DNA of 64,000 nt from Octopus vulgaris (GCA_951406725.2 OX597833.1:3968001-4032000); one strand, 5' to 3'; shown: positions 8,361 through 62,266, counted from the stretch's first letter. Numbers and translations are program-made. The notes: generated from the sequence alone by a model not told the origin.

Positions 8361-8469
8361 CAAGCCCTCACCAAAGCCTAATCAAACAGGTCTATGATCG
8401 AAGACATCCAGTCGTGACCAACCCATCTTTTATTCAGTAACGTTTATATAAAAATAACAGCCAAAAGGT

Positions 8470-11400: not shown

Positions 11401-12882
11401 CCTGGTTGGTCGGTGGGTCGCCTGGTTGGCTGGTTTGTCGGTTGGTTGTTGGCTGCCTGGTTGGTCAGTGGGTCGTCTGGTTGGCTGGTTTGTCGGATGG
11501 TGGTCGATTGGTTGGTTGGCTGGTTTGTCGGTTGGTTGCTGGCTGCCTGGTTGGTCAGTGGGTCGCCAAGTTGGCTGGTTTGTCGGCTGGACGTGGATCG
11601 GTTGGTCATGACTGGTTTGTCGGTTGGTTGCTGGCTGCCTGGTTGGTCGGTGGGTCGCCTGGTTGGCTGGTTTGTCGGTTGGTTGTTGGCTGCCTCGTTG
11701 GTCGGTGGGTCGTCTGGTTGGCTGGTTTGTCGGATGGTGGTCGATTGGTTGGTTGGCTGGTTTGTCGGTTGGTTGCTGGCTGCCTGGTTGGTCAGTGGGT
11801 CGCCAAGTTGGCTGGTTTGTCGGCTGGACGTGGATCGGTTGGTCATGACTGGTTTGTCATTTGGTTGCTGGTTGGCTGGTTTGTCGGATGGTGGTCGATT
11901 GGCTGGTTGGCTGGTTTGTCGGTTGGTTGCTGGTTGGCCGGTTGGTCGGTGGGTCGCCTGGTTGGCTGGTTTGTCGGTTGGTTGCTGGCTGCCTGGTTGG
12001 TCGGTGGGTCGCCTGGTTGGCTGGTGTGTCGGATGGTGGTCGATTGGCTGGTTGGCTGGTTTGTCGGTTGGTTGCTGGCTGCCTGGTTGGTCGGTGTGTC
12101 ACCTGGTTGGCTGGTTTGTCGGCTGGACGTAGATCGGTTGGTCATGACTGGTTCGTTGGTTGGTTGCTGGTTGGCTGGTTGGTCGGTGGGTCGCCTGGCT
12201 GGCTGGTTTGTCGGTTGGTGGTCGATTGACTGGTTGGCTGGTTTGTCGGTTGGTTGCTGGTTGGCTGGTTGGTCGGTGGGTCGCCTGGCTGGCTGGTTTG
12301 TCGGTTGGTGGTCGATTGGCTGGTTGGCTGGTTTGTCGGTTGGTTGCTGGTTGGCTAGTTTGTCGGTTGGTCGCCTGGCTGGCTGGTTTGTCGGATGGTC
12401 TTCAGATCCGCTGGCTGGCTGGTTGGTCGGTGGGTCACCTGGTTGGCTGGTTTGTCGGTTGGACGTGGATCGGTTGGTCATGGCTGGTTTGTCGGTTGGT
12501 TGCTGGTTGGCCGGTTGGTCGGTGGGTCGCCTGGTTGGCTGGTTTGTTGGCTGGTTGGCTGGTTTGTCGGCTGGTTGCTGGGTGGCTGGTTGTTTGGTGG
12601 GTCGCCTGGTTGGCTGGTTTGTTGGCTGGTTGGCTGGCTTGTCGGCTGGTTGCTGGGTGGCTGGTTGTTTGGTGGGTCGCCTGGTTGGCTGGTTTGTCGC
12701 TTGGACGTGGATGGGTTGGTCATGACTGGTTTGTCGGTTGGTTGCTGGCTGGCTGGTTTGTCGGCTGGTTGCTGGTTGGCTGGTTGTTCGTTGGTTCGCC
12801 TGGTTGGCTGGTTTATCAGTTGGACGTGGATCGGTTGGTCATGACTGGTTGGTCGGTGGGTCGCCTGGTTGACTGGTTTGTC
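8470..12882. repeat. GT-rich complex minisatellite with ~119-bp and ~90-bp units and 209-bp and 957-bp higher-order repeats
   Basis: Recurrent anchor GACGTGGATCGGTTGGTCATGACTGGTTTGTC; identical or near-identical ORF translations offset by 119 (10189/10308), 209 (9749/9958) and 957 (9667/10624). Confidence 0.95.
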
Positions 12883-13171: not shown

Positions 13172-15966
13172 GTTTCTTTATTAGCCACACAGGGCTGCAC
13201 ACAGATAGAACAAATTAAAAGGTAGAGCTTTTCTTTTGAAGGTTTAAAAAAAAAAAGGAAGGGGGGAGTTTCGATCAAAAGGGATCGTAAAAGGAGAGAA
13301 AGAGGACAAAAAAAAGGGGGTTTAAAAAAAAAGGGGAGAGGAAAAAAAAAATTTGATCAATAGGGATCGTTATCACAGAAATGTCAATATGAAGTGTAAA
13401 GGGGAGGACAGGTGATGTTTACCCGTGGAAAGAAAAGCCTACGGAAAAGACCACGGTAACCTCGGTCAATGGAGTCAGATGTTATATTTCTTTTTTTTTT
13501 TTTTTTTGCAAATAAGCAACTCTCTGTTTTCAATTTCTGGGTTCATAGGATCATGCTCAAGGTGGCTTCGTCATTCATACGTGCCATTCTTGCTACATTC
13601 ACCCATCTTTTTTTAAAACATTCGCTAGACAAAACTTGCCTCTCTACTCTCACTTTCCTTTTCAAGTGGTACTTGAAGAAGTTGATGAGAGATTGACCAG
13701 AGAGGAAAGTGTTTGTCTCCAATCCTTTCAGACGCGTCCACCAGATACATTCTTTCACCATAGCCACAAGGATGATGAAAATAGCTCTTCCTTCCCGTTT
13801 GAAGGAGGGAGGCGTGACAATATTAACGATAGACTCAGCTGATAAACCGACTTGTCCCACACGTGACAGCAGTTGTTCGACACAAGCCCACAAGTCGGAA
13901 ATTGTTGGACACTACACGAGTGCGTGCAGAACGGTTTCGTCGCTCTGACCGCATCTCGGGCAGGTCGGCCCCGTGTTTCTCGAGCCGTGTCTGTAGAGCT
14001 TATCCCGAACGGGTAGCGCTTCTCGGTAGCACTGTCAGGCCAGGGATCTCTGGAAGTTGTCCATGGGCCCTGGCCCGAAAGTCATTCTGAACAGGCGGGT
14101 CAGGTACTCCTCGTCGACGTCCAGGTTCGCCCCGAGCTCGTCGTCGTACCTCCCCTCCACTAAACCCCTATAGAATGCTTTGGTTGTGTTGAAGTCACTC
14201 AAGGTCGACCCAGGACGGCAGAGTTGCTTGAGAACAACGCGACACTCGCGGTGCCATTCGCCCTTCTTCGGCCTCTTTTTGATCCACGACTGCAGTTCGG
14301 TCATGGAGACGAGCTGCGGGAAAGCGTGCCTCACAAACGGCGACCACACCTGTTCACCGTCGTCTACATAGAGCCAGAGATGTCGCAGTCTCAGCGCGTG
14401 TCTGCGCATCATCAACCACGGCATGCCCAGCCCTCCTTTTAACGGATGTTGACAGCAAATGGATCGCCTGACCATCGGGACGCATCCTTTCCACAAGAAG
14501 CGAAAGAGAATGTGTTGTAGTTTGGTGATGGTAGGGTCGGGACAAGGTACGACGGTCAGGCGGTAGTAGATGACGGACGCGATGTACGTGTTCGCCACCT
14601 CCGCCCGACCTTTTAGGGACAGTTTCCTCTCGACCCATTGCCGGGCGAGAGTGACCACCCTACTCGTTATCTCGTTCCAGTTCTTCTCCACTTGGAGGTC
14701 CGGACCAAACCAGACCCTGAGCAACTCAACCGGGCCGTCGGTCCAGCGTCCCACGACGGAGGCGCTGGTGGACGGCATGGGCTTGCTTCTCCAGGTGCTG
14801 AGTCGCAAGCCCACTGACTTTTCCCGGTTGATTTTCGCTCCTGTCACCGCTTCGTAGTTTTTCAGTGTCTCGCCGACCTGCTCGATGTGCTCGTGGCTAG
14901 ACACTATGACGGTGACGTCGTCCGCGTATGCAGACACGCTCGTCCCGCATCCCAGTTCTCGCGGGATGCCTCTCAAGGTTGCCAGCTTCCGCAATAATGG
15001 CTCGAGAGTCAATACGTATAGAAGCGACGAGAGGGGGCATCCCTGACGGACCGAACGTGCGATGTCGAAGGGTCTCGATAGATGTCCATTCACGCGAATT
15101 ACCGAACGGATGCCTCTGTACAAAGCGGCTATCCAGCCGCGGAAGACGGGACCGAAGCCAGCCGCTCCGAGGACCGCCTCCAAGTATCGATGGTCCACCC
15201 TATCGAAAGCTTTCGATTGATCCAAATTGATCAGCGCCCCACCCATGCCAGGTTCGTTAACTACCCTGTCTATGATGTAGCGCATCAGGTGGAGGTTGTC
15301 ATGGATGGTCCGGCCTGGCACGGCGCATGTTTGCGCCCTGTCGACCAGTTTCTCGATGACAAGCGCCAACCTCTTGGCTAGCACCTTGGCCAAAATTTTC
15401 AAGTCTGCATTAAGCAGAGTGATGGGCCTAAAGTTATCTATTACATTTCCCTTGTTTAGATCTTTCTTCAGCAGTGTTACGGCTCCTCGGCTCACAAAAC
15501 CAGGAATGCTCCCGTTTTGCTGCCAGTTGCAGTACACCGCCGCCAAGAGATCTCCAAACAAGTCTGGCATACAATTGTAAAGCTCGTAGGGTAGACCATC
15601 CAAACCCGGTGATTTGTCCCCCGAGCATTCTGCCATCGCTTCCTGCACTTCCGCCGCCGTGGTGGCACCTTCGCAGCACCCTGCCTTTCTTGTCGAGAGT
15701 CGTGGTAGGCTATGTAGGTAGGCACTGAAGTCCACCCTACGTTCTTGCCCTCCACTCGTTCCGAACAGTCGGGCAAAATGCTGCTGAAAGGCCTCACACA
15801 TTTTACTTGGCTCGAGCAATTCGCGCCCCTGTTCATCTACCAGGGACCGAATGGTGGCTTTGTTGCCCTGTTGCGCCTCTGCCACCCGGGCCTCTCTCGC
15901 GGCTCCAACACCTTCGTTCCTTAGAGCACGCATCCTAGCTCTGACAGCACATCCTTCGTGTTTGGC

Positions 15967-15967
<1 letters not shown>
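13172..15967 (-). mobile_element. 5'-truncated Tx1-like LINE: ORF2 reverse transcriptase, C-terminal CCHC and 3' UTR, with a frameshift near 14050
   Basis: RT motifs KSPGLDGLPYELY, NFRPITLLNADLKIL, LDQSKAFDRVDH, SVRQGCPLS, YADD, GAKINREKS, LSLKGR and GGLGMP; the C-terminus continues in ORF 13543..13893; AATAAA at the 3' end; GATA arrays on both flanks. Confidence 0.92.
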
Positions 15968-16219
<252 letters not shown>

Positions 16220-16718: not shown

Positions 16719-17121
16719 AAACACAAGTGGCAGGTGAAAGCTGTACTGGTAAAGCCATACCTGTACTATGGTTCCGTGTACAACATCGATACAGAAGTGA
16801 AAGAGGACACAGTCAACAACCAGTTGGTTTTCAACGATATAATGTTTACAAAACCAGGCGTCTACATCATCCAACTGACCACCACGTCGACACCGAATGA
16901 ATACACGATTGTTGCCGAGGAAGAAATTCGAGTGAAGCAGTCGCACGTTCTGGTGTTTAGCGACCCCGTGTCAAGTTCAATTAAGATACTCGTTGACATC
17001 GACTACAACAAGGTTGGGTCAACCAACGAAAAGTATTTCCGGGTGTTAATGGAAAACTACTTAATCTATAAGTACCCAAAGGTCACTTTTCCAGAGGTAC
17101 TGGTGTCCGAATCGGAAAATA
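16719..17121 (+). CDS. PKHD1L1: PKHD1L1-like exon
   Basis: taaaatag|AAA CAC AAG TGG continues NIKWR|KHKWQVKA in frame; donor A|gtaagt, phase 1. Confidence 0.75.
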
Positions 17122-17412
17122 GTAAGTAACTTGATTAACAACCTTCTTTATTTAATCTTTAATTATATAATTAGTATAGTAATTAAAATGATAATCTGTA
17201 AAGGTTGTGCCTATAATAATCGGTCCGTAGGGAATGGTAAACAAAGATAAAAGACTAATGATTGAAGAAGATTGGACAAGAATATCCTGCAGGGCTTCTA
17301 TAGAAAGTTTGCTTGTTAGGGACACGAAGGGTTTTTGGGAGGGTTTTAAGGTTACAGGTTGTAACCTGCTTCTCACGTAAATACGACTGAAACCTAAGTC
17401 AAATCAATAATA

Positions 17413-43367: not shown

Positions 43368-44869
43368 TTAACTGACGGGGTTCGGAAATAAGTGGTAGTT
43401 CCTTTTTAATTTTTCACAGGTCTTGCATATCCACTGCTTCTGCTCGTCAGCGAGTTTATTGGGGTCGTGATCCGGGATCAGCGAACCAGGAAATGGTGAA
43501 AATCGACTCAGTTGGTCTCTGGGCAATGGTCTTTCACACGAAATACACATATAGCCCAAACTCTGCTTGGAATACATTTGCATCCCAGCGTCAGCAGATT
43601 TTCCATAGTTAACAACAGAAGAAGAAAATGCAGAACTAGAAGATTCAACCTCTTTTTTCCGATGACCATGGTCAGTTTTTTTCCTAACGTCTGGCACCGA
43701 TTTCAGATAAGAGCAGTTTCCATCGCGGTCAATATTACTGCCAGGAACCCCGTGGTACGGATTCATGTAGGAGAAGTTTGACATTCGGTTTTGCTCAGGG
43801 ATTATACAGGGGAAGTTTATATCTCTGTCATTGAGGTTGCGACTTTGGTTTTGGTTGAAGAATGGATGGATCACGCCACCGGCTTTGTCGTTTGGGTCTT
43901 TGTTCTGCGACTGAACGCCATAAGGAAACATAGATGCCCTATCAGCTGAAGGGACCTCAGTCTGATAGGGATTCAGGCAGAACGATCCCGCTGCCATTCC
44001 GCTGCTGCCCCCTGATGTTGTCGCTCCACCGCCGCCGCCACCACCAGTTGCTGCTGCCGTTGCCGCAGAGACATCCGCACCGGCCCCTGCACCAGTTACT
44101 CCACGGTCGGCAGGGAGATTTTTGTTTTGTTCCTGATCCATGCAAGGGAAGACCGGGCCCTTGTCATGCGTGTCTTTGTTAGGGATCAACGTCATACCTG
44201 GAAACACTGGTCCCCCTAAACCAGCCCTGTCCAGTTCGTTCTTGTCAGCAATCTGATCCATACACGGGAACACGCTTCCCCTTTCAGGAACAATTTTGTT
44301 TACTTGATTTCGGTTCATAAACACGCTGTCTCGATCCGACATTGTCTTGCCATGGTTTTCCGATGACATGTTCGACTTGGAGTAAAGGTAGTCCGATTGC
44401 CTGTTCGTCACTGCCTTTTGGTTTGAGCCGACGTATGCAAAATCAGGAGACTGCTCCTCATTAGGATTCGGTTTCGGGGTCTGCAGACGGTCGTCTTTAC
44501 TTTTCATTTGATCAATGCAGAAACTGTCTACATTTCCATCTGGGCCGCAGGTGTCTGTGTAGCGTAGCAGAGAATCTTGTTCAACCATAGTTGACCCTTT
44601 ACCACGGGGTTTTTGTCCCGTCTTCATCATTTGTACCATAATGCGCTTTCTCTCCACACGCATCTTGGAATTCATTCGCATGCGTTCCAACCGTTTCTGG
44701 CGCTCGTCAAGTGACTCAGTCTCTAAGCGACGCCTTTGGTACTGTCGCATCTGTTCCAGTCTTTTTTCACGAGGATTTATGCAGCCACCACTAAACTGGT
44801 TTCCATTAGATTTCGACCCCTGGTCACAGTTTGGTCCACACATCATGTTACTAGCACATTCATAACAAT
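43368..44869 (-). CDS. Exon 3 (last coding exon) of the Ubl/STPR protein, with two 23-aa repeats and a terminal CxxC-x36-CxxC
   Basis: Acceptor tctatttgcag|AT TGT TAT GAA is in frame with the 492-aa ORF (phase 1); ends YMCISCER...WICKTCEKLKRNYHLFPNPVS*. Confidence 0.85.
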
Positions 44870-45394
44870 CTGCAAATAGATAAAATATACGAGCTTTTAA
44901 TTACAATATAGACATAATTTAAAGTGTGTGTGTGTGTGGGGGAGTCTATATGCATTGATTCTCCAGTCTCTCATCCTCTCTCTGCCTCTATTCACACACA
45001 CGCACCCTCTCCCTCATGCATGTGTGCATGCATCTCACATATGCGTGTATCTTTGTCTCACACACACTCACAAAACTATTCTCTTACATGTATGAGTCTA
45101 CATATATATGTATGTGTGTGTGTGCGCATGTATATATGTATGTATGTATATATGTATGTATATATATATATTTATAGAGAGAGAGAGAGAGAGAGAAAGA
45201 AAGACAGACAGATAGCTATATGTAGATACATGTGTGTGCATATGTATCATGTTTATTCTCCCCATACATACCAGTTAACCAGTATGTAAGAGGGTGGTAT
45301 GTGTGTATAAGTATACACACATACCACCCTCTTACATACTGGTTAACTGGTATGTATGTGCATACATGTGTGTGTGTGTGTGTGTAGATATATA

Positions 45395-47345
45395 CTGTAT
45401 ATTTCCGTGTATAAGACAACCTTTAAATCCTAAAATTTACCCTAAAAATTTGGTGTTGTCTTATACCACCTTTCAAAAAAACCAAACTTTGGGTTTTAAG
45501 TGATTTTATAAGTAAGCTAACCTCACCCTCGGTGCAATAACCACAGACATACGTGAACAGATTAACAAAATAAAAAATAATTATAATACAGGTAATAAAA
45601 ACATTTTTACTTTATATATCATTGGCACATCTTCATAATAAATAGCCTGTTCAAGAGAGAATTCTATATCATTGAAATCAACTTTTATCTATGTAAGCTT
45701 GGCTGAGAAAATGTAAACATCGAGTCATGGTTAAGCTCACAGTAATCTTTATCTTTTGCTAACCTTTCAAAAATATTAATGGTGATGTATAACTGTAGTA
45801 ATAATATTTAGAATAACATATTTAGATTTTTCATAAAATATCTATTATCATTTGGTGGTAAATAATACAATTTGGATTACACACAACCTTTCTTTTCTCC
45901 CATAAAATTATTCTACAGTAGTTGCATTTAAAACATAAGAAATTCGTTCCTATTAAGTTAAATAATATTAATAAAACATCAAACCTGTCAAAATGTATTT
46001 ATCTAAACCCCATCAAATTCCTCATTATCATCACTATCTGTTTCTAAAAGTTCCCTCATACATATCTCAATATTCATCGCATATGGCATCACCATAAGGA
46101 TTCCAGTCTGGTTCTGGTGAATTGACGTCGACTTTGTTGTTGCTATTGTACAGAATATCATCTTCGGTACCATCCATGGCATTAGAGATACCATATTTTA
46201 AAAATGATTTTATCACATTTTCTACTTTCACTTTGTCCCTTGCCTTTATAACAAAATCACAGAGAACATCAAGTGAGGCAGCACGATTAGCCCACCCTTT
46301 TGTAAAAGATATTTCTCCATTCAACCTCCAGTCATTCCATTGCTCTCTCACATTATCTTTAAATGGTTTGTTTAAACTGACGTCAAGTGGTTGCAGTGTA
46401 AAAGTCAAATCACCAGGAATAACAGCAATATCAGAATTGCTTTTGGATAACTGTTCCAAATATTCTCAATCCATAATTTTACACCACTCGACTCCATCCG
46501 CCCTTTCTCGTGAAAATAAACAAAAATGCAAGAGAGAAACCTATTTTGGGCTTTGTCCTATGTTTAATAATAACCACAGGTTTTAATTTTGTACCATCAG
46601 CCATGCAGGATAATACCCCCGTAAACCTTGTTTTCTCATATCTCGCACTTTTAACGCGCACTGTTTTTACCCCTTTCAAATCTACCATTTTGTTACCCAG
46701 CACGTCAAAGTTTAACGGAGTTTCATCCATATTTCCAATATGAGACAATGGAAACTGATCCCTTTTTCTCAGCTGGATGATGAACTGGTGGAAATTGGTT
46801 TCTTTGTGATCGAGATCTCTCAGGAGTTTTGAGGCGATTTTTATTTTCTCCTTTATTACCAGATTTTTTCTGTTCATAAAACGATTGCACCAGCCAACTG
46901 TTGCTTTAAAATCTTGACTTTCTTCTTTATATGATTTAGCTCCTTTTAGAGTATAAGATCTTATTCTATTTCATGTTACAATGTAGCCATCTTGTCCCTG
47001 CTGGAGGACCCATTTTCCTACAGCATTTTTCAACTTCGGCCAACGAGTTCTTCCTCTTCTTATTGTACGTTTTTGTTTTGGCATTTGTCTCAATTTTCCC
47101 TCATTCTTCCTCCACTCTTGGACCATCTTCTCGGCAGCATCGAAAGTTTTAGCAGCAGCTGCTTCTATAACTTCCAATTTGAAACTAGCCTCATATTTTC
47201 TTCTTTTGTCTGGTGGTTGCATATTTCTATGGGTATAAAATAATTATAAAATTCACTTAACTACACAATTTGTGATTTTACTTGAAATATAGGTAAATGA
47301 TTATTAATACACCTGGTTGTTTGTAACTGTTTAGAACATTTCAGT
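45395..47345 (-). mobile_element. Decayed pogo/Tigger (POGK-like) DNA transposon in intron 2 of the STPR gene
   Basis: Brinker-type HTH (RRKYEASFKLEVIEAA), CENP-B HTH remnant, and DDE motifs IGNMDETP, VLSCMADGTKLKP and LQPLDVSLNKPFK; multiple stops and frameshifts; TA|CTGTATATTTCCGTGTATAAGAC terminus at 45395; the other end is approximate. Confidence 0.9.
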
Positions 47346-47520
47346 ATTATGAACCACCATTATCGTATTGAAGTCAAGGCAAGGCAACACAAACATATGC
47401 ACACCAACACACACACACACATACAGGATGGGCTTCTTTCAGTTTCCATCTACCAAGAGAGAAACATCATCACACAGTGGAAGAATTACAATAAGTTCAT
47501 GATATCGTTATACTACTTAC

Positions 47521-48429
47521 CTTCATCAATAGAAGACATTGGTGGTGTAGAAAGACAATCGCATCCTTTTTTCCTCTTTTTGCAGTCTTGCGAGCATTTC
47601 ATGTTGGCATAGCAGCCATCTTTCCCCATATTGCAGTTGTTCATGTAAGAACAATCGGACATGCTGTTGGACATGGATTTATTCTGATCCGAAGAGTAGC
47701 AGCCGAAGCTGTTTCCGTCTCCGTTTGTGGTCACTTGGTTCTGAATCTGGTTGAAAGACGGGAAGACGACTTCTCCGGTGGAGCTCCTGTCCATCACATC
47801 TTTATTGGTACTGAGTGGTTCCATACAAGAGTAAGAGCCAGCCGAAGTTCCGTTCGAGTGGCTTCTGCTCTGGCATTGTCTACCATTCTCTTTCATGCAA
47901 GGAAAATCTCCGTTGCAACATAGATTCTCTTGCTGACATGACTTCCCACACTGGTCCGAGCAACAGGGGCTGTTTTGCATGCTGCTGCAACTTTTGTCGT
48001 TCTGACACATGTAGCCGCAATTTTTATCCATGTTCTTGGAGCTTAATTTCATCGGGAAACTACCACTATCCCGGTTAAGAATCGACTGGTATTGTAATAT
48101 ATTCTCGTTATCTTTCATGCGTCGCATCAGAATTGAAATCGCCTGCGACTTTTTCTTCCCTTTCTGAGTGTTTCCCAATATTTGTGCCACGGCTTTTTTC
48201 CTCTCTTCGCGCCGCCTCGCGTTCTCTCGCATGCGCACCAGCCTTCTCTGTCGTTGCTCGGGGGGTTCGTTTGCCATGCGCTGGTGCTGATACCGCTTCA
48301 TGCGCATCAGTCGCTTTGTGCGCTGTGCATCAGTCTCCGTGTGAAGACGCCTTCGTTGCTTCAGTCTCATTTTCAGCAATTTTCGGTCTTTTGGCGTCAT
48401 CATCTCAGCTGTAGTGTTGTCATAGTAAT
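47521..48429 (-). CDS. Exon 2 of the Ubl/STPR protein (three 23-aa repeats)
   Basis: Acceptor ttgttttgtag|AT and donor GAA G|gtaagt; 909 nt, symmetric phase 1/1; EMMTPKDRKLLKMRLKQRRRLHT / ETDAQRTKRLMRMKRYQHQRMAN / EPPEQRQRRLVRMRENARRREER. Confidence 0.85.
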
Positions 48430-48701
48430 CTACAAAACAAATGACACAACAGAAACAAACGTTAAGAAAATATCTCAGAAGAATAACAAGAATGACAACA
48501 ACAATTCTTACTAATTTTAGCACAAGGCTAGCAGTTCTGATGGGAAAGGGCAGGTTGATCACATCAACCCTAGTACATGACTGGTACTTAAGATCCCTAA
48601 AGGATGAAAGGCAAAACTTGACCTCAGAACTTAATGCCAAAAGAAACACTGTTAAGCATTTTAACCAGCATTCTAATGGTTCAACCAGCACACTGCCTTA
48701 T

Positions 48702-48735
<34 letters not shown>

Positions 48736-48757
48736 GATAATAATAATAATAATAATA

Positions 48758-49222
48758 AAAAGATGGGCTACAGCAAATGTTCTGCTCAATACCACAGATT
48801 TGCTTGTCAGTTGTTTGACTTTAACCAGTTGAGCATGTCCCTCAGTGGCTGACGATATGTGCATCTCTGATCACGAGCAGAAGTAGTGGGGGAGCATCAT
48901 AGCCATGTGTTGAGAGGGATTCTTGGAGGTTTTGATAATTCACCTTTGGAAACATGGGTGTTTCATTCAACATCCTTAAACAATCCTTATTCAGTGACCT
49001 TTTGAGCGGGTTGGGTTACTCGACCAGAAGAAAATTCTAACTGGGCCCCACCTGCAAGGTCATGTGTTGTTAATCTTGATATGAGATCACCATGTCGCGC
49101 ACATATGGTTGTGATGCATGTGCCTGATGTACCCTTATCAGACGAGAAGTCATGATGGGTATACTGGGCTTCGTATATTTTACCCCAGTGTCACTTTGAT
49201 GGCATGCTCTGCTCTCTCACTC
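48758..49222 (+). mobile_element. ~465-bp element, copy 3
   Basis: Colinear with 598-1062; (AAT)n on both sides. Confidence 0.85.
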
Positions 49223-49466
49223 AATAATAATAATAATAATAATAATAATGATCCTTTCTGCTGAAAGCAGAAGGCCTGAAATTTGGGGGAAGGGGACTAG
49301 TCGATTACATCGGCCCAGTGTTTCATTGGTACTAAATTTATTGACCCCGAAAGGTTGAAGGGCAAAGTCGACCTCAGCGGAATTTGAACTCAGAACATGA
49401 AAATGGACAAAATGCCACTAAGCATTTTGCTCAGAGTGCTAAGGATTCTGCCAGCTTGCCACCTTA

Positions 49467-49507
<41 letters not shown>

Positions 49508-49525
49508 TAATAATAATAAATAATA

Positions 49526-49567
<42 letters not shown>

Positions 49568-49723
49568 TAAAAATAAGAATAATGATATCTTTACTACCCA
49601 CAAGGGGCTAAACACAGAGAGGACAAACAAGGACAGACAAACGGATTAAGTCGATTACATCGACCCCAGTGCGTAACTGGTACTTATTTATTCGACCCCG
49701 AAAAGATGAAAGGCAAAGTCGAC

Positions 49724-49798
<75 letters not shown>

Positions 49799-50466
49799 AC
49801 TGGTTCCAAGTTTTGGCACAAGGCCAGCAAGTTTGGGGAGGTGTAAATCATTTACATTGACCCCCAGTACTCATCTGGTACTTATTTTTTATCAACCCCG
49901 AAAAGGATGAAAGGCAAAGTCAACCTCGGTGGAATTTGAACTCAGAACATCCAGACAAGCAAAATGTTGCTAACCATTCTGCCCGGCATCCTAGCCATTC
50001 CGCCAGTTTGCTGCCTTATGGCCTTTTTTAAATATTATTTATTAAAGACATTACAAAGAAATTAAGCTTAAACCAAAGCCGACAAAATCAAAATAAAAAA
50101 AAGATGTTTTTATCAAAATGTTATGAAATAAAAGAAAAGATTCTCAGAGAAAATCAGGAAAATTTGGGTTTCTTATCGTCGTCTTAACCTCTGCTTTTCA
50201 GACAAAGATTGTCGAGGCAGATTTTCTACCCCTAGGTACTCTTCCTGTCATCAACCCATATCTGTTACCAAACATGGCATTATTTTCCCCCAAGTCTTTC
50301 AAACACAAACATCACATTGGCTCAGATGTGTCCCCTTTTCCATAGCAGTGAGGTTAGTTTACAATGTCAAAAACAAGAAGGCACAAACAAACACATATAC
50401 ACACATATACATGCATATACACATAAACACCCACATTATATACTAACATATATACATATACACATA

Positions 50467-50627
50467 GGCGCAGGAGTGGCTGTGTGTATGTAGCTTGTTT
50501 ACCAACCAAATGATTCTGGGTTCATTCCTTCTGCGTGGCACCTTGGGTAAATGTTTTCTACTATAGCCTCGGGCCGACCAAAGCCTTGTGAGTGGATTTG
50601 GTAGACAGAAACTGAAAGAAGCCCATC

Positions 50628-50662
<35 letters not shown>

Positions 50663-50860
50663 TGTGTGTGTTTGTCCCCCTAGCATTGCTTGACAACCGA
50701 TGCTGGTGTGTTTATGTCCCCGTTACTTAGCGGTTCGGCAAAAGAGACCGATAGAATAAGTACTGGGCTTACAAAAGAATAAGTCCCGGGGTCGAGTTGC
50801 TCGATTAAAGGTGGTGCTCCAGCATGGCCGCAGTCAAATGACTGAAACACGTAAAAGAGT
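50467..50860 (+). mobile_element. tRNA-derived SINE family B with internal (TA)n(TG)n (copies at 35824, 56760; inverted at ~22170-22633, ~28080-28483, ~58050-58800)
   Basis: ggcgcaggagtggctgtgtg head; ttgggcaagtgtcttc-like core; gaaactgaaagaagccc; second half ends gcagtcaaatgactgaaac. Confidence 0.8.
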
Positions 50861-52597
50861 AATATACATTGCACACACACACACACATATATATACACAC
50901 TCACACACACATGCACTTAGTCCACTCTACGGGGTGGTTGGTGTTAGGAAGGGCATCCCGCCATAAAGACCCTGCCAAAACAGAATGTGGCCTGCTGTAG
51001 TATTCTATCTGGCCGGCCCCTGTCAAACTGTTCCACCCATGCCAGTATGGAAGGCAGACATTAAACAATGATGATATCATCATTGCCAGCCTTGCCTGGC
51101 CCCCGTGCCAGTGGCATGTAAAAAGCACCATCCGACTGTGGCCGTTTGCCAGCCCCACCTGGCACCTGTGCTGGTGGCACGTAAAAAACACCCACTACAC
51201 TCATGGAGTGGTTGGCGTTAGGAAGGGCATCCAGCTGTAGAAACATTGCCAGGTCAGACTGGGCCTGGTGCAACCTTCTGGCCTCCCAGACCCCAGTTGA
51301 ACCGTCCAACCCATGCTAGCATGGAAAGTGGACACTAAATGATGATGATGATGATTGTTTAACATCAGTTTTCCATGCTGGCATGGGTTGGACAGTTTGA
51401 CTGAGGTCTGGAAAGCCAGCGGCTACACCAGGCTCCAATCTGATCTGCAATGTTTTTACAGCTGGATGCCCTTCCTAATGCCAACAACTCCAAGAGTGGC
51501 ATTAGGAAGTTTTTTAAAAGTTAATTCTGTATTATTTTGTTGCTTTGCGATTTTGAAGATGCACCCTTCGAACATTGGGTGATATGCCACGCTTGAGAAG
51601 ACTCGTCAAGCCAAGTGAAATCATGCTTTATAGTTGATGTCAGTGTTACATAACTGGCACCCGTGGCGAGGGCATGTAAAAAGCACTGTTTGAACATACA
51701 GAATTAACTTCTAAAAAACTGTGAATAAACAGGCAAAGCATTTGACAAAGTAGTCTGAATGCTAAGGGGTTAAACCAGATTATTTCTCTCTGTGAATAAA
51801 AAAAGGTGAAATTAATATCTTTGGAATTAGTAATTTTAACACTTCATGCGACAGTTTACCAGAGCTGGTACAGCTTCACCGGTACCAAAATCTAGTAACC
51901 CAATAACTGAGTCTGACTCCAAACTATGGTTGTGGCTGTAGTTTAGGTGGTCGTGGCTATTTATAAGATAGTAGCTGCTGTAGCTGAGGCATGGTGGTGA
52001 AGATAACTGTAATGGTATAATGTGGTGGTGGTGGTGGTGGTGGTAATATGGTGTGATGGTAATGGGTGCAGTAGAACTGTGGTGGTGATGTTGGCCTTAG
52101 TGTAGTAGTGGTTGTAGTAGTGCTGTGATGGTGGTGGTGTTGGCGGTGGTAGTGTTATGGAGGCTGGGAAAGGTTACTGTAGTTCCACCCACCCCTGTTT
52201 ATTTGTTTATTTATTTATCTATTTATTTATTGTAAAAAGAATCTCTGGGCAGATGGGAAGGAGGGGGAAGGGGAGGAAGCAGGCAGAAGGACGGGGGAGG
52301 GGGAGGAAGCAATCAGGATGCAGCGGCAGTTAATATCTATGTTGCTTAGCAACAGATCAGTCACTCCCCCCCCCCCCACCGCCATCACTGCTCCAATATA
52401 CACAACCACATCCCAATTCAGATATCACACACAAGCACACACACAGATATCCAAACATGTAGATACATGCACACACCTAAACATACGCAAGATATTATCT
52501 ACCTCTGCTAGATAAGAAAATACAGGATTGAGAATACAGGCAGGAGAGAGAGAGAGAGAGAGAGAGAAAAGGGAAGATGGAGAAAGAGATAGAGAGT

Positions 52598-52639
<42 letters not shown>

Positions 52640-53014
52640 AAGGAGTCTGGTAAGAGGAGCATGTATGGAAATACATCAATATATATGCAAATGTGTGTAG
52701 ATAAGCGTATGCATGTATAAGTATATATATGTATGTATGTACATATATATGTGTGTGTGTACATATATATGTGTGTGTGTAGATGAGCATATGTATGCGT
52801 GTGTACGAATGTGTGAGTATATGTATGTATGTATGTATGTACATATATGTGTGTGTATGCGTGTGTAAATGAAAATATGTGTGTATATGTGTGTTTGCAA
52901 ATGAATGTGTGTGTGTGTGTAGATGAGCGTATGAGTGTGTGTATGAATGCGTAAGTATATATATATATATGTATGTACATATGTGTGTGTGTATGTATGA
53001 ATGCGTGAGTATAC

Positions 53015-53045
<31 letters not shown>

Positions 53046-56000
53046 CATATGTGTGTGCGTGTATATGTACATATATATATGTGTGTGTGTGTGTGTGTGT
53101 AAATGAAAATATGTGTGTATATGTAGATGAATGTGTACGAGTGTAAATAAATATGTGTGAATGGGATTGAATGTGTGTGTGTGTGTGTGCTTGCATGGGG
53201 TAGGAAAATTGGGTGCCAGCCTCCAACAGCAAAAAAAAAAGTGATTTGTCAAGATAAAGGGGGGGGAAAAAAAGCAGGAAAAAAAAAACAGACATGAGCC
53301 CAGCGAAAAAATCTAGTGAATCAGAGTGTCTGAGTTAATGGAAGGTTCTAGAAAGAGATCACCCATCCCACTCCCACTCACCCCTACCCAGTTTGGATTT
53401 CTTGTAAGGCTTCTTCGTGGAAAAAAAAAAAAAGCGGGTCCTGATATAACGATCCTAAATGTTTAATTATACCACCAGTATACGCTCAAAAAATTAATAA
53501 AGATTTCAAAAATCAGGGTCCTTGAATTTATACAGATTATTACAAAATTGACACCAAATTCTGGAAAACAGTATGTGTATGTGTGTGTGTGTGTTTATTC
53601 TTTTACTTGTTTCAGTCATTAGATTGTGGCCATGCTGGAGCACCACCCAGAAGGTTTGAATTAAACAAATCGATCCCGATATTGATTTTATTTTCAAGCC
53701 TGTACTTAATCTATTGGTCTCTTTTGCTGAACTGCTAAGTTATGGGGAACGTAAACAAACCATCACCAGTTGTCAAACAGTGGTTGGGGACAAACACATG
53801 GATATATATATATATATATATCACATGATCACGTGACCAACCAGACCATCAGATGTTGCTACACATCGCTGGTCACAATGCGTTCGCATTGTTTTAGCCT
53901 TCGAACGACGCCACCCCGCTGGCTAAGCGAGCAGGCTAACAGAAGAAAGAGTGGTGAAAGAGTACAGCAGGGATCACCACCCCCTGCTGGAGCCTCGTGG
54001 AGCTTTTAGGTGTTTTCGCTCAATAAACACACACAACGCCTGGTCTGGGAATCGAAACCGCAATCCTCTGACCGCGAGTCCGCAGCCCTAACCACTGGGC
54101 CATTGCGCCTCCATATATATATATATAAGTAGGCTTCTTTCAGTTTCCATCTACCGAATCCACTCAGTTTCCCTTGACCAAATCTACTCACAAGGCTTTG
54201 GTCAGCCCCAAATGCCATGTAGCAGGACTGAACCTGGAACCTTAAACAGGTGAGATAATACCATGAAGGCAAATCCAATCTGTGTTGGATGGATTCATCA
54301 TCATCATCAAGATATCATCTCACCTGTTTATAACTTTATCTGAAGATGGTGGATTATATGTTATGACACATCTATAAAATTCTACTGAAACAGCTGCTGT
54401 AAATTTTTAAACCTATTTATGCTCCCTTTTTTTATGCCTGTGCTGCACCTAGACCCAGTCCAAAGTTCTAGGTGCAACATAGGACTTTGTTGCACCTAGT
54501 TCTATGTGCAACATAGATCTACGGCTTAAATAAGGTGGCAGGTTGGCAGAAACGTTAGCACACCGGGCGAAATGCTGAGTGGTATTTTGTCTGTCTTTAG
54601 GTTCTGAGTTCAAATTCCTCAGGGGTTGACTTTGGCTTTCATCCTTTTAAGGTCGATAAATTAAGTACCAGTTGCGTACTGGGGTTGATCTAAGCGACTG
54701 GCCCCCTTCCCCAAAATTTTGGGCCTTGTGCCTAGAGTAGAAAAGATCTACAGTTTAAACTGGATTTGGTATGTACATATCTACAATATCCTACCAACAC
54801 CTGATACCTTCATGTTTGTTTCACCTCAGTGTGAACCTTATGCTATTGCACCTAGCCATTTGTGGCGTCCTACATCTTGATGTACCTGGATTCTATTGAA
54901 TCCTATAGCTAATCTATATGTGTGTGTGTGTTGTTAATATGCTTCTATAATGCAAAACATAACCACTTATTTAGCACCGTATATGCTCTATAACATTCCA
55001 ATACATACACCCAGTAAATATATTCGTGTTAAAATACACCTGAACACATAATGTAGGTGTGCAGGTGGTAATAATAAAGGTGATTGATTTAATGACTTTA
55101 ATCTATTTTCCAGGTAAAGGATCTTCATTTCACACATCAAAAACAATAAGACTGCTCACGTCATGAAACTGCACACACACACATATATGCAAACAAACAG
55201 ATGTACACATACACACACAATATATACGTAATTTTGGGGACTAATGGGTATATGTAAGCTAGTGTGTTGAGTAAAGCACTTCACAGTATGGGCTACCTGG
55301 TGTCATCCATGGTTGGGGTATATTTTTCTGCTGGATCTACATCAGGAATTCCGCAGTGTTAGTTGAGATCATCATCATCATCGTTTAACATCCGTTCTCC
55401 ATGCTAGCATGGGTTGGACGGTTCAACTGGGGTCTGAGGAGCCCGAAGGTTGCACCAGGCCCAGTCTGATCTGGCAGTGTTTCTACGGCTGGATGCCCTT
55501 CCTAATGCCAGCCTCTCCGTGAGTGTAGTGGGTGTTTTTTATGTGCCACTGGCACAGGGGCCAGAGGGAACTGGCAAACGGCCACGATTGATTGGTGATT
55601 TTACGTGTCACCGACATGGATACCAGTCAGGTGGTGCTGGCATCTGCCACGTTCGGACGGTGCTTTTTACGTGTCACCGGCACAATTTCCATTTGATTTA
55701 CTAAAATAGAATGGTAATCATGTTCTATGGACATGAAGGTGTCTCTTGAGGCCTGCAAACTTGGTGCCTTGCAAACCCTTCAGCAAATGGAACAAGTTGA
55801 GGACTCAATTTGCTCAACTGTTTGCGGATTACTTACTGTGTGTTTCCTTGAGTGGACAGCAAGGCCTGCTTTGCTTCGTATGGACATTAATCCTTTATAA
55901 TACTTATTAATTCATATTGTTTCAAACTAACCTTGGCCCTCATCATCATCATCATCATCGTTCAACGTCCGCTTTCCATGCTAGCATGGGTTGGACGAAT

Positions 56001-59000
56001 GACTGAGGGCTGGCAAACCAGATGGCAGCACCAGGCTTCAATCTTGATCTGGCAGAGTTTCTACAACTGGATGCCCTTCCTAACGCCAACCACTCCGAGA
56101 GTGTAGTGGGTGCTTTTATGTGCCACCGACACGGGGCCAGTCAGGCGGTACTGGCAACGACCTCGCTCAAATCTTTTACACATGCCACCGGCACAGGTGC
56201 CAGTAAGGCGATGTTAGTAATGATCACGCTCGAATGGTGCCTTTTATGTGCCACCAGTTAGCCGCTCTGGCAACAAAATTCGACATTCCAATGATGTAAC
56301 TGTTTAGTTTTAAAGTAACATTGTAGGGTAGGTGTGAGAGGTCAGATCTGGCCAATCTGATCATAAAATGGAACAAACATCTAAGCCAGGCACAGTCATT
56401 AGAGTGTTTGAGTAGAATGCCTGGTGGTATTTCTTCCAGCTCTTACTCTGGGCTCTGAGTTCAAATCTGCCTTTCGTCCTTTTGGGCTTGATAAAAAACA
56501 AGTCCCAGGTGAGAGTGATGGACTGTTAGAATTATCAGAGCATCAGATGGGATACCTTGTCATTGCAGTTCCAGCTTTATGTCTTGTGGGTTCAAATCCC
56601 ACCCTGAGACTGAAAAATAGTGACATCTTCTGACAGGAGTTGCGACCAAAACATAGTGCATCCATCCTCATTTATCACAGTCGTTTGGTTCCAAAAACAC
56701 TGATTAGAGAATCACCTCCATGCGTTTTGTAAATGGAATGAATAATAAATTCACATATAGGCGCAGGAGTGGCTGTGTGGTAAGTAGTTTGATTACCAAC
56801 CACATGGTTCCGGGTTCAGTCCCACTGCGTGGCACCTTGTGTAAGTGTCTTCTACTATAGCCTAGGGCCGACCAAAGCCTTGTGAGTGGATTTGGTAGAC
56901 AGAAACTGAAAGAAGCCCGTCGTATATATATATATGTGTGTGTGTGTGTGTTTGTCCCCCCAACATCCCTTGACAACCGATGCTGGTGTGTTTGGTTCCC
57001 GTAACTTAGTGGTTCAGCAAAAGAGACCGATAGAATAAGTACTAGTCTTACAAAGAATAAGTCCTGGGGTCAGTTTGCTCAACTAAAGGCGGTGCTCCAG
57101 CATGGCCACAGTCAGATGATTGAAACAAGTGAAAGAGTAAGGAGAAAAGAGCCCCATACCTGGTCATGTGAGTACAAGTGATAGTCAGTGCATTTTGGAG
57201 AGCTGAACCTTGTGGGGTGGTCACTGGAGGATTGCTTTTGTGGCACAAACGGAACGTTGGACCCATCACCAACCTGTGTTATCACAATTCAGTCCACGAT
57301 AAGCATAACACAATCCACAAGTGACCCTCCTGTCTCATCACTGACCAGTGTTGAATGAATCAGTGTTAACCAAAGCTTGCATATATCTTCTATCTTTTAC
57401 TTGTTTCAGTCATTAGACTGTGGCCATGCTGGGGCATTGCCTCGGAGAATTTTAGGCTAAGGAGTTGATCCTTGTACTTACTTTTCTTTTTAGCCTCCAA
57501 TCATCATTATCATCGTTTAACGTCTGCTTTCCATGCTGGCACGGGTTGGACAGTTCAACCAGGGTCTGGGAAGCGAGGACGCTGCACCAGGCTCCAGTCT
57601 GATCTGGCAGTGTTTCTACAGCTGGATGCCCTTCCTAATGCCAACCACTCCGCGAGTGTAGTGGGTGCTTTTTACGTGCCACCAGCACAGGTGACTGGCG
57701 AGGCTGGCAACGGCCACAATTAGCTGGTACTTTTTACGTGCCACCAGCACAGGTGCCAGGGGAAGCAGGCAGTGGCCACGAAAAATATGTCTGGCCATGG
57801 GAAATACTACCTCACTTGAAAACATGTATACAGTTGGGGACAGAAAGGTCATCCCAGCTGCCTCAACAAATTCAAGCCGACCCATGCAAGCAGGGAAAAG
57901 TGAACATTACAATAATGATGATGCACACATATAGTTTAAAGGTGTGTGGCTATGTGATTAAGGTGTTTGATTCCCAATTGTGTGGTTTTAGGTTCAGTCC
58001 CACTGAGTGGCACCTAAGGTAGGCCCAGGTATTTTGTTTTTTTTATTCTTTTACATGACTCAGTCATTTGACTCTGGTCATGCTCGAGCATCGTCTTTAG
58101 TCAAATAAATCGACTTATTCTTCGTAAGCCTAGAACTTATTGTGTCGATCTCTTTTGCCGAACTGCTAAGTTACAGGGACGTAAACACACCAACATCGGT
58201 TATCAAGCGATGGCAGTGGGGACAAAGACAGACACACAAATACATACATACGTATATACCAAATCCACTCACAAGGCTTTGGTCAGCCCATGGCTATAGT
58301 AGAAGACACTTGCCCAAGATGCCATGCAGTGGGACTGAACCTGGAACCACGTGGCTGGGAAGCAAGCTACTTACCACACAGCCAGTGGATTTGGGACAGA
58401 AATGGAAAGAAGTTCAATTCTTTTATTCTTTCACTTATTTCAGTCATTTGACTGTGGCCATGCTGGAGCACTGCCTTAAAGGGTTTTTAATTGAAGAAAT
58501 CAACCTCAGGACTTATTATTTGTAAGCCTAATATTTATTCTATCAGTCTCTTTTGCCGAACCACTAAGTTACGGGGACGTAAACACACCAACATCGGTCG
58601 TCAAGTGATGGTGAGAGACAAACAGACACAAACATATATATATATATATATATACATACATACAATGGGCTTCTTTCAGTTTCCATATAACAAATCCACT
58701 CACAAGGCTTTGGTCAGCTTGGGGCTATAGTAGAAGACACTTGCTGAAGGTGCCACAATGAGGGACTGAACCCAGAACCATGGGAGGCAAGCAACCTACC
58801 ACAATCTGCACCTATGTTTAGAAATATATCTGTGTGCTTGTTTACATTTGCCCTGCTCTCGAATTTGCTCAGCAACGTGAAGTGATGTGACTGTCATTTC
58901 CTCGTATCAGTGGATCACCTGCTAACTTTGTAATCTTGAAGATGTGTGGGAATAAGATGTCCAGCATTTGTAAAAAAAAACTGGTGAGGGTTAGCAACAG

Positions 59001-59474
59001 GATGGGCATCCAGCTGTCAAAAACTTGCCACAATAATGTATTCATCAAGCTCATGCTGGCATGGAAAACAGACAAAAATGAACCAACAAAATATCATCAT
59101 CATCACGTTTGAGAATTTCTATATACACACACACGAGTGTGTGTGTGTGTATATCATCATCATTTAACGTCCGCTTTCCATGCTAGCATGGGTTGGACGG
59201 TTCGACATGGGTCTGGGAAGCCAAGAGGCTGCACCAGGCCCAGTCTGATCTGGCAGTGTTTCTACAGCTGGATGCCCTTCCTAACGCCAACCACTCCGTG
59301 AGGGTAGTGGATGCTTTTTACATGCCAGGCGAGGCTGGCAATGGCCACAATCGGTTGGTGCTTTTTACGTGCCACCGGCACAGAGGCCAGTCGAGGCGGT
59401 TGCTGGCAATGGCCACATTCGGATGGTTCTTTTACGTGACACCGGCACTGGTATCACAACTACAATTTCCATTG

Positions 59475-59512
<38 letters not shown>

Positions 59513-60161
59513 TTTCTTTTTTCTTTTGTTTGTTTCAGTCACTTAACTGCGGCCATGCCAGAGCACCACCCTCAGTTGAACAAATTGACCCCAGGATTTA
59601 TTGTTTACAATCCTAGTACTTGCTCTATTGGTCTCTTTTGCCAAACCACTTAGTTACAGGGTTGTAAACACATTAACATCAGTTTTCAAGACACACAAAC
59701 ATATACATATGACACGCTTTCAGTTTCTATCTACCAAATCTACTCACAAGACTTTGGACAGCCTGGGGCTATAGTAGAAGGCACCTGCCCAAGGTGGGAC
59801 TGAACCTGGAACCATGTGGTTGGGAAGCAAGCATTTTACCACACAGCCATACTTATATTGTTAACGTTTGTTTTTACGCTCGGTTATAATAAAAGCAATT
59901 TTACATTAATCAGGTGGGTTACCCTACATATATGTGGGTGTGTACATGTATATATATATTATATTTGTATATTTATATACACATATACACACACACACAC
60001 ATATGTATATATGCATAGACATATATATGTTTATACACATAAACACATAGATGTACATTATATGTATAGCAATATATATATATGTATGTATCCTTAAATC
60101 CTTAAAAATGCTTTAGCCCGAAGGCCGCGGCCATGCTGGGGCACCACCACATGTATGTATG

Positions 60162-60210
<49 letters not shown>

Positions 60211-60227
60211 ATATGTATATATATATA

Positions 60228-60277
<50 letters not shown>

Positions 60278-60345
60278 CATACTATATAAGCATTAACATA
60301 ATGAGTTGTAAACATTATCCTATCATTACAATTTGAATTACTCAC

Positions 60346-62266
60346 CTTGACTAATGAGTGGCGAAAATGAAGACCCCAACATGTATTCAAGCTTCCTCTC
60401 CAGGGTCCCTACATCTTCTAATTGCCCAAAGTCAGCTCCTGCTTCGCCCGGACCGAGTGTGGATTTTTTCTTCTTGCGCTTCACGGTTTTCGGTGAAGTA
60501 AATGAACAGGATGAATTACCGGTCTTCTGTTGACCACCAATGTCCAGTAATGTCAGGTTGTTACTTTGGTCGCTCTGACCAGCTTTCGCCGCCGTTCCTT
60601 TGCTCGATGGATCAAGTGAACTTTGAATGGCATCCAGGTTTAACAGATCTTCACTTCGAGGAGTCATAATCTCAGTTCGCACACAGTCAACTTGGGTTGG
60701 CTTATAGTTAGGCTTGAGATAAGGAAAAGCCCCATCTCTATCAGAGAGGCCCAAACCTTGAGCTGCACTAATATAAGAAAATCCACCATCTCTTTCATTC
60801 GTTCCAGTTTTACCATTCTCTTCACTGATATTACTTTGGGGTGACGTCAGGCAATCAAAGCCCATTTCTTTATCAGTCATGTCTTTGTTTTGGTTAGAAT
60901 GCAAGTGAGAAAATATTCCAGAAGTATCTGCTTTATCTGCCATACCCTGTTTGTTGAGGCCATCCTTGTCCATAGTTGAGTCCATACAAGGTAAAACAGC
61001 CCCACCAGCCGATCCACGCTCCATCCCAGCTTTGTGCCCACCTTGCTGGTTCCTATTCTGGCACTGACTGTTGTTCTCTTTCATGTAAGAGTATTCTCCA
61101 TTGGAATTTTTCTGACTTGAATCTAGATAAGACAAATCTCCTTGCCTGTTGGTCTTGTCACATTGGTTAGCGAACCCTGATCCATCCTGGGTATTACAAA
61201 CATTTTTATCATTTTGACTTAAATAGCTGAAATCATCTTGCCTGTCATTTGGGTCTTTCTGGCCTTGTTGCTCCATGGATGGAAATCCTTGATTACGACC
61301 TGACATATTCTTTGAGTTCATTTTCATGAAAGTCAGGTTGTCGCCGGCTTGTCTCATCAATAATTCAGCAGTTGAGGTCTTTTTCCGCCCCTTCTTACAA
61401 GAAGATCCCAATATCTGTGCTATGGCTTTCCTCCTCTCGACGCGCATTCGCGCATTTTCTTTCATACGTATCAGTCTTTTGTGTCTACCATCTGCGTCTT
61501 CGGTATGAATTCGATGCCGTTGATTTTTTTGAAGTCTCTGCAAGCGCCTCGATCGATCAGGCTCACTTTCGATATCAATCCGTCGATGTTGATTTATCCT
61601 TAACCGCATCAACCTAGCTTCCCTCTCAGCTAGAGTTTCTCGGGCACGTTTAGCCCGTTCGTAAGCTTTCATCTGCTCCAGTCGCATCTGTTTATCTTCC
61701 AGTGACATATTAGCATATCGTTTCCTCTGATATTCTCTCTTTCGGATCTTTTTTTCGTTCCTTTTGTCGTCGTCGACTGCAAACGATCGAGATTGTCTAT
61801 CGATCCGGCAGTTGCCGATCTGGTAGTCAGAATAGCAGCCATAGCTATAGTTGCCATCACAAAAAATCTCGGAAGTGGTGTTGCAGTCTAAACATCCGTT
61901 TGAAGAATTGAGAAAAACATCCGGATCGCTGTCATACAAGCTTTCGAAGTTACTGAGGTCAGATCGGTCGCAGACCTTCCGCGTTTTCGTAGTCTTTGCA
62001 TGGATTTTGCATTCGATGTAGTTGTTGGTGGGCTTAATGTTTTGTTCGGAGAGAGGGAAGTACCATAAGAGGATTTTACCATTATGGGTCACGCAAAAGT
62101 TCTTGCTATCGTAGATAGTTCGACTGAGGATGTCACAGAGCGTCTGGTGAGGCTGAAAATCGAGAGTAAAATCACGTCCTGAATCGATTCTGAAGCAAAT
62201 CTGCATCGCTGCTGCTCCACTGCTGGTTTGTCCTTTCGACATATCGCTATAATTGCAATCAGACAT
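60346..62266 (-). CDS. Exon 1 of a ubiquitin-like / STPR-repeat / C4 zinc-finger protein
   Basis: 642-aa ORF of complex composition; Ubl-like aa 21-89 (MQICFRIDSGRDFTLDFQPHQTL...HNGKIL...LSEQNIKP); five 23-aa repeats at aa 164-278; donor CAA G|gtgagt, phase 1. Confidence 0.85.

Follow-up and report, generated by a model that had tools for sequence, protein, structure and literature searches.

The gene described here lies on the minus strand at positions 43368-62266 of a 64 000-nucleotide (nt) stretch of the Octopus vulgaris genome (OX597833.1:3968001-4032000), called the window below; positions refer to the window unless another locus is named. By sequence comparison, its three exons are copies of one unit, an array of 23-residue STPR repeats followed by a linker and a C4 zinc finger, chained into a protein of 1443 residues by splice donors that fall within the coding sequence. 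The evidence tips slightly towards a single-copy, triplicated gene that was domesticated from the N-terminus of the transposase of a Helentron (a Helitron-like element of the HLE2 class), and whose product is predicted to bind AT-rich DNA multivalently in the nucleus.

The coding part of exon 1 (60346-62266, 1921 nt) gives residues 1-640, an N-terminal extension plus unit 1. Exon 2 (47521-48429, 909 nt) gives residues 641-943 and unit 2, is symmetric (phase 1-1) and has a diverged, Cys-rich linker. The coding part of exon 3 (43368-44869, 1502 nt) gives residues 944-1443 and the stop codon, and its unit 3 is the only one that bears a finger. Introns 1 (48430-60345) and 2 (44870-47520) are both of the GT-AG type and in phase 1, with donors AAG/GTGAGT and AAG/GTAAGT and pyrimidine-rich acceptors ending in TAG and CAG. 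The joining of three long open reading frames (ORFs) proposed in the initial annotation was reproduced exactly: 1921 + 909 + 1502 = 4332 nt, or 1443 codons plus the stop, an uninterrupted frame whose start ATG is preceded by an in-frame TAA. Intron 2 also holds a remnant of the pogo/Tigger type (46070-46970, minus strand), with a weak HTH_Tnp_Tc5 match and a DDE_1 match (E = 8.6e-8) in separate frames.

Splicing was judged from annotated models and sequence; in the sequencing-run listing, exon 1 was present in 19 of 23 rows, none of them recorded as RNA. The RefSeq model of O. sinensis, P0004 (LOC115221555, 1443 residues), differs from the window translation at 5 of 1443 residues, and at all five the window has the residue of the O. 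vulgaris model P0005. The P0004 cluster (n = 4) also includes P0005, P0006 from O. bimaculoides (1441 residues) and P0007 (641 residues), a form that reads through the end of exon 1. Both junctions are common to the three full-length models (P0004, P0005 and P0006). These orthologous annotated models, together with the position of the donors, support one spliced three-exon gene in the present-day octopus. The P0004 cluster was the only long homologue found among 987 candidates of 1121-3200 residues and two of 793-2526 residues, in a word-limited search that is weak as evidence of absence. Our searches found no paper on the protein or on the gene's accessions (subscription journals and supplements lay outside the search), so that the earlier description of it as undescribed holds for the literature, although it is already in the databases as models labelled 'uncharacterized', 'hypothetical' or 'STPR domain-containing'.

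The unit also occurs singly. P0017 (482 residues) has the order array-linker-finger and a C-terminus like that of the gene, matching exon 3 at 45% overall, and P0008 matches at 71% over the finger end. P0011 and P0020 (436 and 512 residues) have a three-repeat array nearest to that of exon 2 (36 of 55 residues identical), a linker nearest to that of exon 1, and a finger and stop of their own. We infer that P0011, P0017 and P0020 come from other cephalopods; each may be a whole gene or a last exon. Linker-to-linker comparisons gave scores of 152, 156 and 107 against shuffle maxima of 76, 85 and 64 (300 shuffles each); ten pairs were tested, and exon 2 against P0011 merely equalled the shuffle maximum. 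The unit 2 linker (47521-48100, minus strand, residues ∼775-945) is unusually Cys-rich and is the least conserved part of the protein (19 differences in 226 residues). In a tree, unit 3 joins P0017 (support 99/98), and units 1 and 2 join P0011 and P0020, the order among them not being separated and a long-branch warning applying.

When the last 70 residues were run by phmmer against 1.84 billion representatives, seven matches came back. Three were false matches to repeat proteins, and the other four were the gene itself, two clusters of homologues and a single Helentron protein. A five-unit profile gave three matches among 7999 scored candidates of 166-1120 residues (a word-limited search). 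Exact look-up in the protein collection found none of five exon-wise ORFs and two small STPR ORFs; of the eight queries, P0022 alone was found. P0009, P0012 and P0013 had been considered as homologues and were rejected as false matches inflated by repeats.

The donors show how the units could have been chained. Donor 1 lies within an I-x-x-G-[KE] motif (60341-60358) whose Gly codon, GGT, supplies the GT, and donor 2 lies within an I-x-x-G-K motif (47516-47530); in both, the read-through frame reaches a stop two codons on. The homologous motif of unit 3 (43599-43616) has the Gly codon GGA, which gives no donor GT, and the frame continues into the finger. P0011 has an I-x-x-G-K motif ∼15 residues ahead of its own finger. 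When its 12 residues were aligned along the exon 1 read-through, the best of 631 windows was the very last; along exon 2 the last window ranked second of 293 (first with a 7-mer), and in exon 3 the best window was the one with GGA. The motif had been noticed before the ranking was run, so this is a test after the fact; even so, coincidence of motif and donor in two exons would be hard to get by chance. Donors at a homologous Gly codon ∼15 residues before the finger would explain why only the last unit keeps a finger, and their placement in both exons argues for one gene at present. Neither the introns nor the tails of exons 1 and 2 showed any remnant of a finger or unit. The gene is a clear example of how a protein can multiply its domains, here by duplicating a unit in tandem and using a splice donor in coding sequence.

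The three arrays are free of gaps and together comprise ten repeats of exactly 23 residues: five at 61433-61777 (residues 164-278), three at 48200-48406 (residues 649-717) and two at 44649-44786 (residues 972-1017), with the counts and coordinates given in the initial annotation. The first repeat of every array is degenerate. The STPR identity claimed for them was borne out by Pfam, PF21107 matching exon 1 with 30.1, exon 2 with 31.6 and exon 3 with 20.4 bits, and the whole protein with 60.2 bits; exon 3 on its own falls under the curated cut-off of 27 bits. The single significant match of the two PDB rows was FMBP-1 (PDB 5d23, E = 4.8e-11), which array 2 matches best. Arg and Lys make up 38 of 115, 25 of 69 and 15 of 46 residues in arrays 1, 2 and 3. 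Taking the DNA-contact positions from the FMBP-1 work (PMC4856987), and reading the register of array 3 by eye, R6 is present in 8, R9 in 8, L10 in 9, M13 in 7 and R20 in 9 of the ten repeats. In FMBP-1-DNA structures each repeat covers 4 bp of the major groove and R6, R9, L10, Y16 and R20 contact phosphates; three repeats are enough, binding in vitro is best to AT-rich 4-bp repeats, and the readout is mainly of DNA shape with no unique site (PMC4856987). By this comparison DNA binding is probable for arrays 1 and 2, and the two-repeat array 3 may be unable to bind alone.

The C4 finger (Y-x-C-x2-C-x36-C-x2-C, 43416-43553), already recognized in the initial annotation, has its cysteines at C1385, C1388, C1425 and C1428. 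Pfam run on the finger alone gave weak zinc-finger matches below the cut-off (best E = 0.0034). Related fingers occur in HLE2 proteins, directly ahead of the domain DUF6570. In the ESM Atlas the top match scored 0.91 with 158 of 256 features shared, DUF6570 was present on 26% of its members, and the family recurred in 21 of 30 matches; the DUF6570-linked clusters span fungi and arthropods. P0010, found by phmmer with E = 2.1e-7, has five such fingers and then DUF6570 and OTU domains. A profile of eight HLE2 fingers scored 33.0 bits on the gene finger against a maximum of 14.0 bits in 2992 shuffles with the cysteines fixed. HLE2 remnants in the octopus genome, fetched with DUF6570 as the sole query (seven matches of 12 scored), have the same finger immediately before DUF6570, and a profile of the three fingers so fetched scored 11.9 bits, a value reached by none of 2972 shuffles (maximum 9.0 bits). 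Comparison with the finger of the octopus remnant L023 was equalled in 4 of 1000 shuffles, and hhalign gave a probability of 65%. These scores are modest, and the gene finger appears to be of the type that precedes DUF6570 in HLE2 elements. In P0010 the five finger copies arose partly by a large internal duplication. The octopus loci L022-L028 are broken Helentron remnants with 23-residue repeats (L028/L065), the C4 finger, DUF6570 and OTU.

An array directly ahead of such a finger also occurs in the elements. Three near-identical metagenome HLE2 loci of one family (L068, L069 and L071) have 23-residue arrays with E1, S2, R6, R9 and L10 just before the finger. In L068 and L071 the arrays give weak Pfam STPR matches under the cut-off (E = 6.5e-5 and 5.1e-4) and are followed by finger, DUF6570 and OTU; Rep follows in L069 and L071. 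A single-protein query found five HLE2 loci among 91 metagenome stretches, and with an alignment as query none was confirmed in 207 stretches of metagenome contigs and 143 of viral contigs. The octopus genome gave at least 50 matches to PF21107 when 150 of 1002 candidates were scored. Of the 20 best STPR loci, 18 belong to a single HLE1 family, and in 17 of these RepHel sequence lies inside the locus. This family (L003-L020) is multi-copy and spread over many contigs, with an N-terminal STPR array and copies mostly 85-94% identical over the first 150 residues. Three adjacent small STPR ORFs, with frames of 174-218 residues (including L002:1411-1950 and L021:1336-1989, both plus strand), lie on C3 of the same genome (G000) at about 151.345-151.372 Mb. 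The two that were scanned gave 66.1 and 55.6 STPR bits, no HLE1 sequence was found nearby, and the three are a candidate second, tandem host STPR gene family, FMBP-1-like in size. According to the paper on HELIANO, DUF6570 marks HLE2 elements (Helentrons) and STPR is stably carried by HLE1 (PMC11417382).

The gene itself has one locus. In this genome, the finger query gave one match of three scored, the N-terminal query one significant match of four, and all six P0011 matches fell inside the three exons. Between the O. vulgaris and O. bimaculoides models the finger end has no differences in 63 residues and the linkers are 92-96% identical. Conservation at the protein level extends over the three Octopus models, P0007, and P0017, P0008 and P0022, at 35-45% in the more distant animals. 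Pfam found STPR alone in P0004. When the window was searched by tblastn with P0010, L013, L023 and the L071 Rep, only the finger was met, and P0010, L013 and L023 found nothing in the 20 kb upstream; neither region gave a match to DUF6570, OTU, Rep or helicase. One locus and the lack of these domains nearby argue that the gene is not an element. Of the marks of a domesticated gene, it has an intact frame at one locus, lacks the catalytic core and shows constraint at the protein level.

Several observations weigh against an HLE2 origin and against the proposed binding. The count of 158 shared Atlas features lies below the 170 typical of true family matches. The E-value of P0010 sums five stretches, and three of the seven phmmer matches are unrelated repeat proteins inflated in the same way. 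In the forward direction the profile gives HLE2 fingers just 6.8-17.7 bits, with two unrelated proteins at 8.1 and 7.1 and the best reversed control at 4.7, and the frameshifted fingers of L070 and L071 score ∼0 bits. Two of the four HLE2 arrays scanned have no STPR match (L069 and the octopus L065), and the array-finger spacing is ∼50 residues in HLE2 but ∼370 in the gene. In the HELIANO paper STPR is nearly confined to HLE1 and DUF6570 to HLE2, and STPR is regarded as a domain that elements took from their hosts (PMC11417382). As to binding, Y16 is present in four of ten repeats and the complete E1-T/S2-R9 triad also in four of ten, and the two-repeat array 3 is shorter than any array listed in PMC4856987.

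The strongest competitor, which we consider possible but rather unlikely, is a mosaic or host origin, in which a STPR factor of the FMBP-1/ZNF821 kind gained a HLE2-type finger separately, or both were old host modules captured by elements; the function would be much the same. The gene repeats have M13, Y16 and R20 as FMBP-1 does, and the L069 repeats do not, so that array and finger may have had separate donors. The gene repeats are nearer to those of FMBP-1 than to the HLE2 arrays seen. The HELIANO assignments just cited speak for this origin too, and ZNF821 also combines a STPR domain with zinc fingers (as its name in PMC4856987 indicates). On the other hand, HLE2 elements with a STPR-like array directly ahead of such a finger do exist. 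The relatives of the finger are broad in elements, including the fungal and arthropod clusters, and narrow in hosts, with only three host-type homologue clusters retrieved, which favours transfer from element to host, for the finger at least. The more specific history, in which a cephalopod gene arose from a Helentron cassette of STPR array and pre-DUF6570 finger and then became a three-armed binder by chaining its units through a coding-sequence donor, we put forward tentatively, as somewhat short of an even chance.

Under a domestication from HLE2, the starting point would be an element N-terminus with a repeat array and then a finger. DUF6570, OTU, Rep and helicase would have been lost, a low-complexity linker acquired and the unit duplicated in tandem. 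Through a donor in the Gly codon before the finger, each internal unit could then be spliced to the one after it, leaving out its own finger, which would have decayed. If the repeats behave as in the crystal structures of FMBP-1, each would form a helix on DNA and span 4 bp of major groove, so that arrays 1, 2 and 3 would cover ∼20, 12 and 8 bp, with a preference for AT-rich 4-bp repeats. Linkers of 230-370 residues would allow the arrays to hold separate sites, so the protein may cluster or bridge AT-rich sites as a regulator of transcription or chromatin, in which partners would likely be bound by the finger and by the N-terminal domain.

Compatible with the same origin is a role in transposon control, in which the cassette would bind Helitron-like ends, or AT-rich motifs spread by Helitrons, and silence them or compete with the transposase. 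Domesticated DNA-binding domains of transposable elements often retain affinity for related elements, and this genome has both the multi-copy, STPR-bearing HLE1 family and the HLE2 remnants. By inspection, however, the gene repeats are not close to the resident HLE1 repeats, and a readout of the FMBP-1 type, mostly of DNA shape, does not pick out a unique site (PMC4856987); we regard this role as improbable.

Much less credible is a wrong joining by gene predictors of what would be three paralogous genes in tandem, the alternative raised in the initial annotation, or of short read-through transcripts. The exons are indeed paralogous units, single-unit ORFs ending in finger and stop occur elsewhere (P0011, P0017 and P0020), exons 2 and 3 each have an early Met-Met, and P0007 is an exon 1 read-through form. 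Separate genes are nevertheless unlikely in the present octopus: the three annotated models share both junctions, the two near-consensus donors occupy one homologous codon, the frame past each of them ends after two codons and shows no trace of a finger, and in the model comparison the residues ahead of Met-Met in exons 2 and 3 are kept right up to the acceptor. A still-mobile or recently dead Helitron fragment, which the Helitron copies among most of the top STPR matches in the genome might suggest, has next to no likelihood given one locus, three long intact frames kept in three Octopus species, 35-45% conservation in more distant animals and the lack of DUF6570, OTU, Rep or helicase nearby.

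The ubiquitin-like module that the initial annotation placed at the N-terminus is a label, not an observation, and is unproven, no profile, shuffle or fold match being significant; we give a module of this kind at residues 18-93 (61988-62215) about an even chance. The segment is well conserved (two differences in 76 residues between the O. vulgaris and O. bimaculoides models). No Pfam family was found for residues 1-100, and the best named Atlas matches were ubiquitin and Rad60-SLD clusters at 0.84-0.87, which is lead level and not significant. A 29-residue match to this genome's ubiquitin was equalled in 2 of 5000 shuffles, the other seven of the eight ubiquitin-like stretches compared were not significant, and a six-member ubiquitin-like profile did no better than shuffles. 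A single-sequence model of the 76 residues (predicted local distance difference test, pLDDT, 51) has the order strand-strand-helix-strand-strand-strand, compatible with a ubiquitin-like fold; a 300-residue single-sequence model was unusable across residues 1-166. Foldseek with the 76-residue model found nothing at E ≤ 0.001 and a few ubiquitin chains at E 1-3 over ∼30 columns, and VIA-align reached a best Z of 4.3, with ubiquitin-like chains at just 2.3-2.6.

Elsewhere in the window, a reverse-transcriptase ORF at 14038-16068 (minus strand; RVT_1, E = 3.8e-31) resembles a non-LTR (non-long terminal repeat) retroelement, as does a piece at 4619-6364 (minus strand) whose ORF has a weak zinc knuckle. 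Two exon-like ORFs on the plus strand (3-584 and 16719-17126), in which Pfam found nothing significant, resemble the C-terminal part of fibrocystin-L/PKHD1L1. A 4.4-kb satellite at 8467-12882 is GC-rich, with strong strand skew and GGTTGGCT-like units. About 11 kb upstream of the ATG, a Yip1-domain ORF (L073:9126-9998, minus strand, E = 4.4e-10) offers a usable synteny marker.

If the domestication from HLE2 is true, a conserved host protein derived from the N-terminus of a rolling-circle transposase would add a new donor class beside the cut-and-paste transposons, and the orphan pre-DUF6570 finger would gain a tractable host example. The origin of the STPR domain of silkworm FMBP-1 and human ZNF821 would become testable, with the suggestion that these proteins are themselves Helitron-derived, reversing the published reading of a captured domain. 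The protein is also a candidate for reading the AT-rich 4-bp microsatellites with which this genome is filled. We found no described case of a Helitron-derived host protein in animals in the open literature (subscription journals and supplements lay outside the search); the literature found on domesticated Helitrons, judged by title and the start of the abstract, concerns regulatory DNA or the population genomics of transposable elements. In the available portion of the main text of a survey of factors derived from transposable elements that includes Octopus, 'Helitron' and 'STPR' have no occurrences (PMC10027918).

STPR proteins and transposon-derived transcription factors are both known kinds, and the gene shares features with each. 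It resembles the N-terminus of HLE2 RepHel proteins (P0010, L023, L068, L069 and L071) in its Y-x-C-x2-C...[WY]-[IV]-C-x2-C finger, and L068 and L071 also have the array-finger order of its unit. The HLE2 protein, however, runs on into DUF6570, OTU, Rep and helicase, whereas the gene ends 15 residues past the finger and has a 370-residue linker, introns and one locus. With the HLE1 RepHel N-terminus (L013 family) it shares an N-terminal STPR array above the Pfam cut-off, but that family continues with a different Cys cluster and then Helitron_like_N, and its copies are multiple and mostly broken. The fingers of ZNF821 are C2H2, unlike the HLE2-type C4. Like the gene, ZNF821, Drosophila CG14440 and CG14442, and C. 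elegans C05D11.13 are host proteins in which a STPR array is joined to other domains; compared by description, ZNF821 and the other animal STPR proteins have one array of 3-7 repeats where the gene has three arrays (PMC4856987). FMBP-1 of Bombyx mori has the same basic 23-residue repeats with the pattern E1, T/S2, R6, R9, L10, M13, Y16 and R20 (PMC4856987), in a protein of 218 residues with one four-repeat array, as against 1443 residues, arrays of 5, 3 and 2 with several degenerate repeats, and a C4 finger. The factors ZBED, CENPB, THAP, HTH-Psq, FLYWCH and FHY3 likewise keep the DNA-binding domain of a transposase without its catalytic core but, as far as the available survey text describes them, all come from cut-and-paste transposons, unlike the donor proposed for the octopus gene (PMC10027918).

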